Shown here: positions 4,929 to 64,000 of the stretch, in pieces
Numbering within the stretch: position 1 is the first letter of the stretch
Layout: each line of letters opens with the position of its first letter
Assembly: GCA_030834985.1 (NCBI GenBank)
Contig: JAUQWV010000001.1
Coordinates: forward strand, 120,979 to 184,978
Direction of reading: 5' to 3'
Length of the DNA stretch: 64,000 nt
Origin: Candidatus Dojkabacteria bacterium
GTDB taxonomy: Bacteria; Patescibacteriota; Dojkabacteria; J137
The notes under the pieces: generated by a model
Database searches by the model: none
Seen by the model: only the letters and a program-made list of their open reading frames with translations
What the model was told of the DNA's origin: nothing
Translations under genes and position numbers: made by a program

Positions 4929-5978
4929 ATGGCGAATATAAATTTTGATAGGGAGTACTATAAAAATTTAATAGCGAAGCACGGGTATCAAGAGCTGAAT
5001 ATTTCTGCAATAGATTTCAATCTTGGCGATATTAACAAAGATATATTACAGAGAAAATGGTTGTGTCACAGTAAAGGCTATATATTTGCAAAAGAACTTC
5101 TAGATAAAAAATCAATTGTAACAACTGGTATAGGAATAAGTGGTGCTCCACATATGGGCACTTTAGGACAAATTTTTAATTCTATATTCCTTCAGAACCA
5201 TGGTATTAATACGCAATTTGTATTAGGAGATTTAGATGCTTACAACGGTAAAAAACTTTCATTATCTTACGTAAAAGAACTTTCAGAACAGTATAAATCA
5301 TTTATTACTAAGTTAGGCTATTCTACAACGGATGGAAATATACTAAGGAATCAATTTGATGCAAGTGAAGTAACTAGGACAATGTATCTAATTGCAAAAT
5401 TTATAGAAGATAAAGATTTTGATAATGTGGAAGAAGATCTTCACAATTTTTATTCTGATAAAGGAAAAGTAGATAAGGATATGTCATTTAGACGTAAGAC
5501 TTCTCTTACTCTTATGACTGCAGATTTTATAGATCTTGTTATCAATCACAGTTTTACTAACGTGTTAGTTACATTAGGAGTAGATGAACATAAGTATGTT
5601 TTGTTTTCAGAAAAGATTCTAGAAAGAGTTATAGAGTCCGGTGAAATACTACCAAGCGACAGTATTATAAATTTTGGAGCAATGTACACTCACATAATTA
5701 GAGGCTTTAATAACTACCCTAAAATGTCGAAATCATTCCCTGATTCTTCGATAAATATTGAAATGAAATCAGATGAAATAAGAAATAGAATTTTGAATGA
5801 AAGAACAAACAAAATTCCAGAAGAAGACACTGTATATCAAATGATGTGTCTAGTAAGTAAATTTAATAGTGAGGAACTGTCAAAAAGATATATTGCATGC
5901 AAAGAAGATAAAGCATTATGGATGAAATATAAAAACGACTATATAGAATACTTGATAGATATTTTTAAACTGTGGTGA
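4929..5978 (+). CDS. class I aminoacyl-tRNA synthetase paralog, TrpRS/TyrRS family, divergent (349 aa)
   Basis: HIGH-region-like GIGISGAPHMGTLGQ, FVLGDLDA, and an intact KMSKS (YPKMSKSFPDSSINI...IRNRI). It has an extra ~65 aa N-terminal extension. First gene of a tightly packed operon. Confidence 0.6.
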   Translation: MANINFDREYYKNLIAKHGYQELNISAIDFNLGDINKDILQRKWLCHSKGYIFAKELLDKKSIVTTGIGISGAPHMGTLGQIFNSIFLQNHGINTQFVLGDLDAYNGKKLSLSYVKELSEQYKSFITKLGYSTTDGNILRNQFDASEVTRTMYLIAKFIEDKDFDNVEEDLHNFYSDKGKVDKDMSFRRKTSLTLMTADFIDLVINHSFTNVLVTLGVDEHKYVLFSEKILERVIESGEILPSDSIINFGAMYTHIIRGFNNYPKMSKSFPDSSINIEMKSDEIRNRILNERTNKIPEEDTVYQMMCLVSKFNSEELSKRYIACKEDKALWMKYKNDYIEYLIDIFKLW

Positions 5979-62345: not shown

Positions 62346-62374
62346 TTGACCGATTAAAATCAAAATAATATAAT
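62346..62374 (+). promoter_or_regulatory. consensus sigma70-type promoter TTGACC-17-TATAAT
   Basis: Exact hexamers with 17 nt spacer read from the sequence; the T-box leader lies downstream. Confidence 0.5.
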
Positions 62375-62394
62375 CAAATTGAAAATTGAATATC

Positions 62395-62527
62395 AGCAGT
62401 GATATTGCTTGGCAACAATGGAGCTGAAATTGAGAGGGCTTATGAGTAATCATAAGAACTAGGGTGGAACCGCGGTTGAAAGCCGTCCCTAAGGTGGAGT
62501 AATATTTACCTTAGGGACGGCTTTTTG
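62395..62527 (+). promoter_or_regulatory. T-box riboswitch leader (tRNA-sensing antitermination element), putative Gly specifier
   Basis: T-box consensus AGGGTGGAACCGCGG at 62461..62475 with the UGGA bulge, overlapping an intrinsic terminator (agccgtccctaaggt ... accttagggacggct then ttttt, 62480..62527). Candidate specifier GGC-A at 62411..62414. Confidence 0.6.
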
Positions 62528-62556
62528 TTTATCTATATTTTTAATAAACTATATAT

Positions 62557-63024
62557 ATGAATACAGATCACGATGTTTGTGTTGAAATGCATAGAAGCGA
62601 TAGACATACAGGAGGAAATCCAGAAGCTGCGCAAATAAGCTATATTCTTACTCCTTATGGAAAAAGACAGTCATTAGATAGTCTTTTAGCCTATGGGTCT
62701 ATTACAGAAGATATGCTTAAACAGGCACTTGCTCAAGTTAACTGGGCTGACCCCGCTATGTTTAAAAATATTCGTGAGCTCTGTGAATTATTAGCCCAGA
62801 ATCCTTCAAATACAGGTGAGTTAGTAGCTTTTATTGAGAAAGCACTTACAGACAGTGAGTATTTAGATGATGCCGTTACTAATCTAAGTGAGGTAATAAA
62901 ATTTATCTTTGAAAATAATCCTGCTTTATATATGAAAATTCAGGAATATTTTGATGATAAAAGCGAAGTTTTTGGTGTAGCAGTATTAAATGTATTTAAC
63001 CTATCTTTTCAGATGGAAGCTTAA
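62557..63024 (+). CDS. hypothetical protein (155 aa) between the T-box leader and glyQS
   Basis: Intact ORF; no motif recognised. Confidence 0.45.
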   Translation: MNTDHDVCVEMHRSDRHTGGNPEAAQISYILTPYGKRQSLDSLLAYGSITEDMLKQALAQVNWADPAMFKNIRELCELLAQNPSNTGELVAFIEKALTDSEYLDDAVTNLSEVIKFIFENNPALYMKIQEYFDDKSEVFGVAVLNVFNLSFQMEA

Positions 63025-63041
63025 TATTATTATCTTAACTT

Positions 63042-64000
63042 ATGAAGAAATTAGAAAATCTAGAACAATTTAAGGCTTGGGCAAAGGAAAATGCATTTAT
63101 TTACCCCTCTAGCGAGATTTATGGTGGTTTTGCTGCTGTATACGATTACGGACACTATGGAACATTATTAAAAAATAATATCCAGAATGCCTGGATTAAG
63201 TCGATGGTTCAGGATCGAAACGATGTATATATTTTAGACTCAGGGATATTTATGCATCCTAAAACATGGGTAGCAAGCGGACATGTTGGAGGTTTTTCTG
63301 ATGTTTTAGTTGAGGATAAAAAAACTCATAAAAGATATAGAGCAGATCACTTGATTGAAGAATGGTTTGAAAACAAAGGTGAGAAGGTAGATATGGATAA
63401 AAAAACTGCTGAAGAATTGGCTGACATTATTAAAACTAATAATATAAAATCGCCTGAAGGTAACGATTTAACTGAATCTAGGAGCTTCAATCTGCTGGTT
63501 AAATCTAACATGGGAACTACAGATGCAACCTTTAGTGATGAAAATGTAACTTATTTAAGAGGAGAAACATGTCAAGGAATTTACCTAGAATATAAAAACT
63601 TTGTTGATACCCTAAGGCTAAAGCTGCCTTTTGGTATTGCTCAGGTTGGTAAAGCATTCAGAAATGAAATTGTAGCAAGGCAGTTTGTGTTTAGAACTAG
63701 AGAATTTGAGCAGATGGAGATGCAGTACTTTCATAAACCTGAAGATAAAAAAGAATTATTTGAAATGTGGAAACAAGCAAGAATGGGTTGGCTAGTAAAT
63801 GAATTAGGAATTAGTAAAGAAAATTTAAGATTTAAAGAACATGAAAAGTTAATTTTTTATGCAACTGCTGCGTTTGATATTGAATATAACTTTAGAACTT
63901 TAGGCGGTTTTAAAGAAATTGAAGGAATTCACGATCGTGGCGATTACGATTTAACTCAGCACGCAAAGTTCTCTGGTCAAACGCTTGATTATTTCGATCA
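63042..64000 (+). CDS. glyQS: glycyl-tRNA synthetase, dimeric (GlyQS) type, 5' part (continues beyond window)
   Basis: FIYPSSEIYGGFAAVYDYGHYGTLLKNN N-terminal signature of alpha2 GlyRS; class II motif 2 region FRNEIVARQFVFRTREFEQMEMQYF. Confidence 0.85.
   Translation, partial: MKKLENLEQFKAWAKENAFIYPSSEIYGGFAAVYDYGHYGTLLKNNIQNAWIKSMVQDRNDVYILDSGIFMHPKTWVASGHVGGFSDVLVEDKKTHKRYRADHLIEEWFENKGEKVDMDKKTAEELADIIKTNNIKSPEGNDLTESRSFNLLVKSNMGTTDATFSDENVTYLRGETCQGIYLEYKNFVDTLRLKLPFGIAQVGKAFRNEIVARQFVFRTREFEQMEMQYFHKPEDKKELFEMWKQARMGWLVNELGISKENLRFKEHEKLIFYATAAFDIEYNFRTLGGFKEIEGIHDRGDYDLTQHAKFSGQTLDYFD

Follow-up and report, generated by a model that had tools for sequence, protein, structure and literature searches.

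Two kinds of T-box leader come closest to the element reported here, a leader upstream of the glycine--tRNA ligase gene glyQS near the end of a 64,000-nt stretch of DNA (the window; contig JAUQWV010000001.1, positions 120,979 to 184,978 of the forward strand). We take the host of the window to be Candidatus Dojkabacteria, of the Candidate Phyla Radiation (CPR)/Patescibacteria, which agrees with a preliminary description of this DNA that had assigned it to an AT-rich lineage with a small genome; the G+C content of the window is 30-36%. The first kind, the glyQS-type leader (RF00230 in Rfam), is found in Firmicutes, with glyQ/glyQS of Bacillus subtilis, Geobacillus kaustophilus and Oceanobacillus iheyensis as examples. 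Its glycine specifier, with a purine on the 3' side, is presented by an internal loop that contains an S-turn. Stem I has a kink-turn (K-turn) at its base and continues above the specifier into a C-loop hinge, an AG bulge and a distal loop. Together these make up a platform of interdigitated T-loops on which the tRNA elbow is stacked. Stem II and the Stem IIA/B pseudoknot are both absent. A single-stranded purine-rich linker leads to Stem III and to a UGGAACC bulge, an intrinsic terminator overlaps the antiterminator, and the target is glycyl-tRNA synthetase (GlyRS).

The second kind is the ultrashort (US) Stem I T-box of actinobacterial ileS genes, such as Mycobacterium ileS. Here Stem I is a short helix with the specifier in its terminal loop, a basal K-turn and no elbow platform. 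These leaders respond to tRNA-Ile, need a Stem II S-turn and a Stem IIA/B pseudoknot for tRNA binding, and control translation through a sequestrator. Ultrashort T-boxes, with the specifier in the terminal loop, all regulate ileS (10.1101/2023.02.28.530422). Intermediate and ultrashort Stem I's are considered a feature of translational T-boxes, and a K-turn normally lies at the base of T-box Stem I (PMC7583486).

The leader in the window shares with the glyQS-type the glycine specifier and purine, the basal K-turn signature, the linker without Stem II or pseudoknot, Stem III, the UGGAACC bulge, the overlapping terminator and the GlyRS target. Unlike that type, it has lost all of Stem I above the specifier (C-loop hinge, AG bulge and distal loop), places the specifier in a terminal loop rather than in an internal loop with an S-turn, spans only about 98 nt, and belongs to a CPR host rather than a Firmicute. 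It resembles the US ileS leaders in its short helix, terminal-loop specifier, basal K-turn signature and lack of an elbow platform; unlike them, it has a 12-nt linker without the Stem II S-turn or the pseudoknot, a terminator in place of a sequestrator, a Gly specifier and a GlyRS gene. It thus has the core of the T-box family, is without the Stem I platform of class I, and is without the Stem II, translational and ileS features of the US class. From its sequence and that of its relatives, we propose with a probability of about 0.8 that the leader is a tRNA-Gly-sensing transcriptional T-box attenuator of reduced architecture, controlling glyQS together with an intervening open reading frame (ORF), ORF155. 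Its parts are as follows.

62346..62374, forward strand: sigma-70-like promoter, with -35 TTGACC at 62346-51, a 17-nt spacer and -10 TATAAT at 62369-74
62394..62426, forward strand: ultrashort Stem I, 33 nt, seen in covariation across 14 leaders; the minimum free energy (MFE) structure of 62381-62436 gives the same fold
62394-97 with 62423-26, forward strand: C-helix of Stem I, CAGC pairing with GCUG
62398-62403 with 62420-22, forward strand: K-turn of Stem I by sequence signature, with bulge AGU at 62398-400, G-A 62401-02 opposite G-A 62421-22, and U62403 opposite G62420
62404-07 with 62416-19, forward strand: upper (specifier) helix of Stem I, AUUG pairing with CAAU
62408-15, forward strand: terminal loop CUUGGCAA of Stem I, 8 nt, carrying GGC
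62411..62414, forward strand: specifier GGC and purine A62414, preceded by the invariant U62410
62427..62438, forward strand: linker AAAUUGAGAGGG, 12 nt, A/G-rich and single-stranded, without Stem II or the Stem IIA/B pseudoknot
62439..62456, forward strand: Stem III, CUUAUGA / GUAA / UCAUAAG, matched by RF00230 with high posterior probability
62460..62491, forward strand: antiterminator (discriminator core), 51.5 bits with a custom model
62460-64 with 62487-91, forward strand: antiterminator helix A1
62472-76 with 62482-86, forward strand: antiterminator helix A2, closed by a 5-nt A2 loop
62461-62475, forward strand: T-box core AGGGUGGAACCGCGG, starting 86 nt past the -10 hexamer
62465-71, forward strand: T-box bulge UGGAACC, 7 nt, whose UGGA would pair with tRNA 3'-UCCA
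62478..62530, forward strand: intrinsic terminator, a 20-bp stem at 62478-62525 (9 G-C pairs) followed by UUUUUGUUU, with the U-tract at 62522-26 and 62528-30

The core sequence AGGGTGGAACCGCGG is the sole exact match to GGGTGGNACCGCG in the 64 kb, where 0.2 matches would be expected even with 2 mismatches. Between A62414 and the core lie 46 nt. The terminator shares 62478-62491 with the antiterminator, so the two folds are mutually exclusive; their predicted energies are -33.9 kcal/mol for the terminator and -10.6 kcal/mol for the antiterminator. There are 4 terminator-like sites in the region against 0.6 expected, and this one, with its U-tract, ends about 30 nt before the first start codon. 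The preliminary description had recognized a T-box leader with a glycine specifier here, and its individual observations stand: a consensus T-box sequence about 90 nt past a promoter, a UGGA bulge, an overlap with a strong intrinsic terminator, and GGC-A about 50 nt upstream of the core. What fails is its assignment to the short glyQS-type, given a 33-nt Stem I that consists of a K-turn, 4 bp and an 8-nt terminal loop, with no long Stem I, internal-loop specifier or distal platform. That description was right about the kind of element, a glycine T-box on ORF155-glyQS, and wrong about its architecture.

The promoter matches the consensus at 11 of 12 positions. It had been called exact, which holds for the sequence TTGACC-17-TATAAT and its spacing, and not for a comparison with TTGACA. 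Promoter-like sites are no more frequent in the region than chance predicts for AT-rich DNA (5 against 5.8 expected). Support for this one, drawn from sequence comparison, consists of the quality of the match and of an equivalent promoter at the same place in relatives. Transcription would start near 62381, about 7 nt past the -10 hexamer. For 13 of the 14 leaders, the distance from the end of the best -35/-10 match down to the first paired base of Stem I is 4-28 nt, which indicates that no long Stem I is hidden upstream. Divergent from the leader, and upstream of it, is serS. The start of serS is ambiguous: the longest ORF begins at TTG 62315, the equivalent of the gene call in locus L081 would be 62303, and the Seryl_tRNA_N domain aligns from ATG 62279 (MLDVNY...). 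The serS and T-box promoters must share a spacer of about 70-100 nt.

Stem I closes with its 8-nt loop after 4 bp of upper helix, and we found no distal AG bulge or distal loop that could serve as an elbow-docking platform. The K-turn signature (helix-NNN-GA-N ... N-GA-helix, a GA motif) stands at the base of Stem I in the window and 7 relatives, its flanking helices covary, and a K-turn is predicted there. As in glyQS-type leaders, a short linker without Stem II or pseudoknot joins Stem I to Stem III, and GGC-A precedes a GlyRS gene; as in the US class, the specifier lies in the terminal loop of a shortened Stem I, and the 13 relatives are alike in this. The linker ends in purines beside Stem III (GAGAGGG, or AAGNG-like in relatives), with stacking under the antiterminator predicted. 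A perfect 7-bp hairpin, AAUAUCA-GCAG-UGAUAUU at 62389-62406 (-5.1 kcal/mol), overlaps the 5' strand of Stem I and would be transcribed first. It appears in the whole-leader MFE structure from RNAfold; we rejected it as the functional fold, since relatives show no evident conservation of it and the proposed Stem I is the more stable of the two in the 5' segment. It is possibly a kinetic competitor of Stem I.

The default Rfam scan of the window at the gathering score gave 4 tRNAs only and no RF00230 match. With permissive filters, RF00230 matches 62364-62493 with 45.1 bits (gathering score 93; E = 6e-9 for the 371-nt region). The alignment is nearly perfect, with high posterior probability, over model positions ~150-219, which cover the purine linker, Stem III, the T-box and the antiterminator. 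In the same alignment, just 7 nt stand in for 87 consecutive Stem I positions, and those of Stem II and the pseudoknot are deleted. Therefore, the low score reflects a missing Stem I domain rather than weak resemblance. The preliminary description had tied its reading to an RF00230 score above threshold and to a specifier-loop geometry for GGC. The score falls short because approximately 87 Stem I positions are missing, and the loop that holds GGC is terminal, where the canonical geometry has an internal one; yet the comparative data show a conserved, covarying variant. A threshold score and canonical geometry are too strict a standard for a non-canonical member of the T-box family.

We looked for relatives with one scan of genome contigs, using a GlyRS fragment, and with 12 contig look-ups (11 for Dojkabacteria GlyRS and 1 for ORF155). 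The scan returned 80 loci, of which only 3, all from CPR, have a T-box core 5' of glyQS: L006 (Nealsonbacteria), L020 (Moraniibacteriota) and L022 (a metagenome-assembled genome labelled Micavibrio). A protein search returned many Dojkabacteria GlyRS at 60-91% identity, and a T-box lies 5' of glyQS in 10 Dojkabacteria lineages whose GlyRS is 70-85% identical (L083, L084, L086, L087, L088, L090/91, L092, L093, L094 and L096). No T-box was found at glyQS in two more distant Dojkabacteria, L001 (GlyRS 57-59% identical) and L097 (63%), the latter a near-complete genome with a serS-glyQS spacer of 81 nt. We also searched 775 kb of fetched sequence with a covariance model built on the discriminator core. 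It matched the window and 14 loci (L083, L084, L086, L087, L088, L090, L091, L092, L093, L094, L096, L006, L020 and L022), at one site each, 5' of glyQS, and nowhere else in the 775 kb; the duplicate loci L081/82, L085, L089 and L095 had been left out of this search. We compared 14 leaders, those of the window and 13 CPR relatives (10 from Dojkabacteria and 3 from other CPR). Stem I is given here for the window and three of them.

Window: CAGC AGU GA U AUUG, loop CUUGGCAA, CAAU G GA GCUG
L083: AUAAC CGU GA U GGG, loop GUUGGAAU, CCC G GA GUUAU
L086: GUAAU GUU GA U AGG, loop GUUGGCAG, CCU G GA GUUAC
L091: UUUGC AGU GA U UGCU, loop AGUGGCGC, AGCA G GA GCAAA

The same pattern of K-turn and specifier hairpin occurs in L088, L094, L096 and L020. 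Six leaders have the specifier hairpin without a clean K-turn (L022, L092, L093, L084, L006 and L087). The common architecture is a K-turn, a 3-4 bp helix, an 8-9 nt terminal loop N-N-U-GGN-R-N, a linker, Stem III, the UGGAACC bulge and the terminator. Measured from the first base of Stem I through the last of the antiterminator (62394-62491 in the window), the element is 97-111 nt long in 13 of 14 leaders, and the specifier lies 51-67 nt before the bulge. Specifiers are GGC in 10 leaders, GGA in 3 and GGU in 1; only the third position varies, and all encode glycine. A U directly precedes the specifier in every leader, and a purine directly follows it in 12. The bulge UGGAACC is identical in all 14. 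Linkers are A-rich, end in AAGNG-like purines, have no Stem II or pseudoknot and measure 12-34 nt in 13 leaders. The 34-nt linker of L093 holds one additional hairpin; that of L006 counts 51 nt, a figure that includes a region where Stem III was not assigned. In all 14 leaders the 3' strand of the antiterminator doubles as the 5' strand of a hairpin of 16-24 bp with a U-tract behind it, which indicates that every member is transcriptional.

Because MAFFT was unable to align the short Stem I module, we built a modular structural alignment of the 14 leaders by hand, with N for gaps. Standard pairs fill 97.7% of 310 cells, compared with 68.8 +/- 1.9% after column shuffling and 39-53% when partners are slid by 1-3 columns. 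Both sides change in 22 of 31 pairs, the covariation score is 0.54 against 0.17, and none of 500 shuffles reached the observed values. The C-helix is 88% paired, with L087 alone breaking it; the upper helix and Stem III are 100% paired, with compensatory changes in 7 of 10 Stem III pairs, and helices A1 and A2 are 98% and 99% paired. RNAalifold and single-sequence MFE folds are independent of the structure annotation. RNAalifold recovers 26 of 29 pairs, and single-sequence MFE folds contain the C-helix in all 8 leaders of the K-turn class and, in 10 of the 14 leaders, put a hairpin where one is proposed.

Two variations among the relatives stand apart from these comparisons. The A2 loop carries insertions of 15-44 nt in four leaders: L020 3820-3863 (44 nt), L084 2364-2385 (22 nt), L093 ~2406-2425 (20 nt) and L092 ~1936-1950 (15 nt). 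They are reminiscent of 'stem Sa', a lineage-specific insertion in the glyS T-boxes of staphylococci. The second concerns L090 and L091, which are near-identical (12 single-nucleotide polymorphisms in 6413 nt, same GlyRS protein) and differ at position 2352 in the middle base of the specifier, GGC (Gly) in L091 and GCC (an Ala codon) in L090. L090 carries either a natural specifier mutant or an assembly error.

If the leader works as proposed, the first structure transcribed would be the 33-nt Stem I, showing GGC in an 8-nt loop that resembles an anticodon loop. The GCC anticodon of tRNA-Gly would pair with this GGC, while the K-turn and the 12-nt purine-rich linker would aim the discriminator (Stem III and the antiterminator) at the acceptor end of the tRNA. 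With an uncharged tRNA, the 3'-UCCA would pair with the UGGA bulge and stabilize the weak antiterminator against the terminator. RNA polymerase would then read into ORF155 and glyQS. With a charged tRNA, or with none, the terminator would form. That the leader binds a tRNA, which tRNA this is, that the K-turn folds and how expression responds are all inferred from the conserved parts of the leader. The loop U-U-GGC-A-A resembles positions 32-38 of a tRNA, with the context Y-U-NNN-R-A seen in anticodon-anticodon loop-loop complexes; this is a likeness of sequence only, and the specifier loop has 8-9 nt, unlike the 7 nt of an anticodon loop. It suggests a kissing interaction between the specifier loop and the anticodon loop of tRNA-Gly. 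Both the all-G-C codon-anticodon helix and the anticodon-loop-like context may compensate for the missing contacts. A strong GGC:GCC duplex has been argued to let glycyl T-boxes dispense with Stem II (PMC11404447). A bolder claim is that the leader is the smallest natural T-box, a co-transcriptional sensor with two RNA-RNA contacts only, the specifier hairpin kissing GCC and UGGA pairing with 3'-UCCA; we hold this tentatively, at a little under even odds.

Several points weigh against a tRNA-Gly-sensing attenuator. The alignment was hand-fitted to the proposed structure, which inflates the paired percentages. Neither the window nor any relative reaches the gathering score of RF00230 (33.5-55.9 against 93 bits), the clean K-turn signature is present in only 8 of 14 leaders, and the competing 5' hairpin (-5.1 kcal/mol) overlaps a Stem I of -6.2 kcal/mol. 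No tRNA-Gly gene was found in the window or in 41 loci, and the GCC anticodon and U73 are predictions. Rapid capture of tRNA by transcriptional T-boxes is held to depend on an elbow-docking platform, and a truncated Stem I is held to bind hardly any tRNA unless Stem II assists it (PMC7583486). With only two contacts against this expectation, function is not guaranteed. The main risks are that the element may need a helper factor and that a prior description may exist in literature outside our search coverage.

The poor tRNA binding expected of a truncated Stem I without Stem II would suit a decayed relic, in which Stem I and tRNA sensing are lost and the terminator is constitutive and leaky, or answers to some other factor. 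The patchy occurrence of the element in CPR, and its absence from L001 and L097, could mean that loss is under way. However, lineages with GlyRS only 64-85% identical have kept the specifier hairpin, the K-turn, the UGGA bulge and the switch, with compensatory changes, and the specifiers drift among glycine codons only; together these indicate purifying selection on tRNA decoding. An unregulated 20-bp terminator before an essential single-copy aminoacyl-tRNA synthetase gene would also be costly, and we judge a relic to be quite improbable. A functional T-box in which a protein or an extra RNA contact replaces the elbow and Stem II contacts is unlikely but deserves serious consideration. The protein could be a K-turn-binding member of the L7Ae family, GlyRS itself or a product of the ORF155 type. 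The K-turn is kept at the base of Stem I in 8 leaders, K-turn-binding proteins are known partners of T-box K-turns, and A2-loop insertions, present here in L020 (44 nt), L084 (22 nt), L093 (20 nt) and L092 (15 nt), have elsewhere been proposed as added tRNA contacts (PMC7583486). Against a helper, nothing in these data points to such a protein, ORF155 is not conserved with the element, six leaders are without a clean K-turn, and the A2 loop of the window has only 5 nt.

The two remaining alternatives concern the geometry and the codon. A canonical glyQS-type T-box, with a long Stem I, an internal-loop specifier and an elbow-docking platform, would share with this leader its discriminator half, its Gly specifier, its glyQS target and the absence of Stem II. 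But only about 55 nt separate the inferred start site from Stem III, RF00230 swaps 87 Stem I positions for 7 nt (45 against 93 bits), 13 of 14 leaders have no more than 4-28 nt between the best promoter match and the short Stem I, and GGC or another GGN lies in a terminal loop in every relative. A canonical leader is accordingly extremely unlikely. We give almost no credence to a loop triplet of UGG (Trp) in place of GGN. U-G-G does occur in 14 of 14 loops, but the regulated gene encodes GlyRS in every case, the base after UGG varies (C, A or U), and GGN followed by a purine, as the specifier rule has it, is found in 12 of 14. A UGGA bulge also predicts the discriminator base U73, which is typical of bacterial tRNA-Gly, whereas bacterial tRNA-Trp has G73. 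A reduced T-box that senses tRNA-Gly accounts best for the conserved specifier, bulge and switch.

Two genes follow the leader.

62557..63024, forward strand: ORF155, 155 aa, all-helical, the first gene of the T-box transcript
63042..64000, forward strand: glyQS, dimeric-type glycine--tRNA ligase, running past the end of the window (NCBIfam NF003211, 375 bits)

The full glyQS product has 469 aa in L081. As the preliminary description stated, the leader heads a two-gene unit; it placed the start of glyQS just after the 155-aa ORF, which is correct for ATG 63042, with a gap of 17 nt rather than 18. No terminator lies between the two genes. A weak promoter-like sequence, TTTTCA-16-TATTAT at 63006-63033 (9/12), lies within the end of ORF155, just 5' of glyQS; such matches occur at chance level, and if it is real, some glyQS expression would be independent of the T-box.

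ORF155 has no match in Pfam, NCBIfam, PHROG or PADLOC. An exhaustive HMMER search of 1.84 billion representatives gave only two remote relatives: P0122, 40% identical over the full length, and P0123, a repeat-containing protein of 1227 aa. P0123 has six copies of a segment resembling ORF155 residues 50-106 (residues ~619-674 and five other stretches), which suggests from sequence that ORF155 corresponds to one unit of a helical repeat module. AlphaFold2 models ORF155 as all-helical at moderate confidence, with a predicted local distance difference test score (pLDDT) of 68, and the model found no structural match in the PDB with Foldseek. The suggestion that ORF155 might be conserved in synteny with glyQS did not hold up: the slot between T-box and glyQS is empty in six related lineages, and in five lineages it holds small ORFs unrelated to ORF155.

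L083 1805-2480: a bAvd/23S-rRNA-IVS-like protein and an orphan
L096 2034-2399: bAvd/23S-rRNA-IVS-like, 46% identical to that of L083
L092 2055-2483: a DUF559 protein
L094 2168-2485: an orphan
L022 3595-3966: an orphan

The slot looks like a hot spot at which small and perhaps selfish genes insert and are then placed under the T-box. Because only 17 nt and no terminator separate it from glyQS, ORF155 is most simply a lineage-specific insertion brought under control of the T-box. Other RNA elements occur near the glyQS loci of relatives. Sub-threshold matches to the AdoCbl-II riboswitch RF01689 (gathering score 36.5) lie at L091 4751-4846 (35.1 bits) and L094 4918-5007 (33.5 bits), upstream of a conserved gene of ~587 aa without a Pfam match, two genes past glyQS; the equivalent site in L081, ~5600-5820, falls beyond the window end. 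L092 5190-5594 is a class A RNase P RNA (101.8 bits against a gathering score of 100).

In the full-text literature we found no report of T-boxes in CPR, Patescibacteria, Saccharibacteria or Parcubacteria, a search whose coverage leaves out most papers in subscription journals, where a prior description may exist. With the leaders described here, the range of T-boxes comes to include the Candidate Phyla Radiation; none of the members found reaches the standard Rfam threshold. TBDB used RF00230 to collect class I T-boxes and discarded anything under 100 nt (PMC7778990); a miniature class would therefore largely escape it. A Stem I that offers its codon in a terminal loop has so far been described only in isoleucine T-boxes that control translation with an extra helper domain, which is absent here. 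Published work treats the combination seen in these leaders, a transcriptional T-box with an ultrashort Stem I, no elbow platform and no Stem II, as non-viable. Current T-box models hold that a transcriptional T-box needs the distal platform to capture tRNA before RNA polymerase gets to the terminator, and that an ultrashort Stem I binds tRNA only when Stem II helps (PMC7583486). A conserved, covarying family that has a terminator but neither the platform nor Stem II makes both claims directly testable on an RNA of about 100 nt. Such a miniature T-box is also a compact natural scaffold for engineered tRNA-responsive switches, and it bears on how T-boxes originated or were pared down in minimal genomes. 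If two contacts do suffice, then neither elbow docking nor Stem II would be intrinsically required for transcriptional T-box function, and this form would either have arisen by reductive evolution in CPR or stand near the ancestral T-box.

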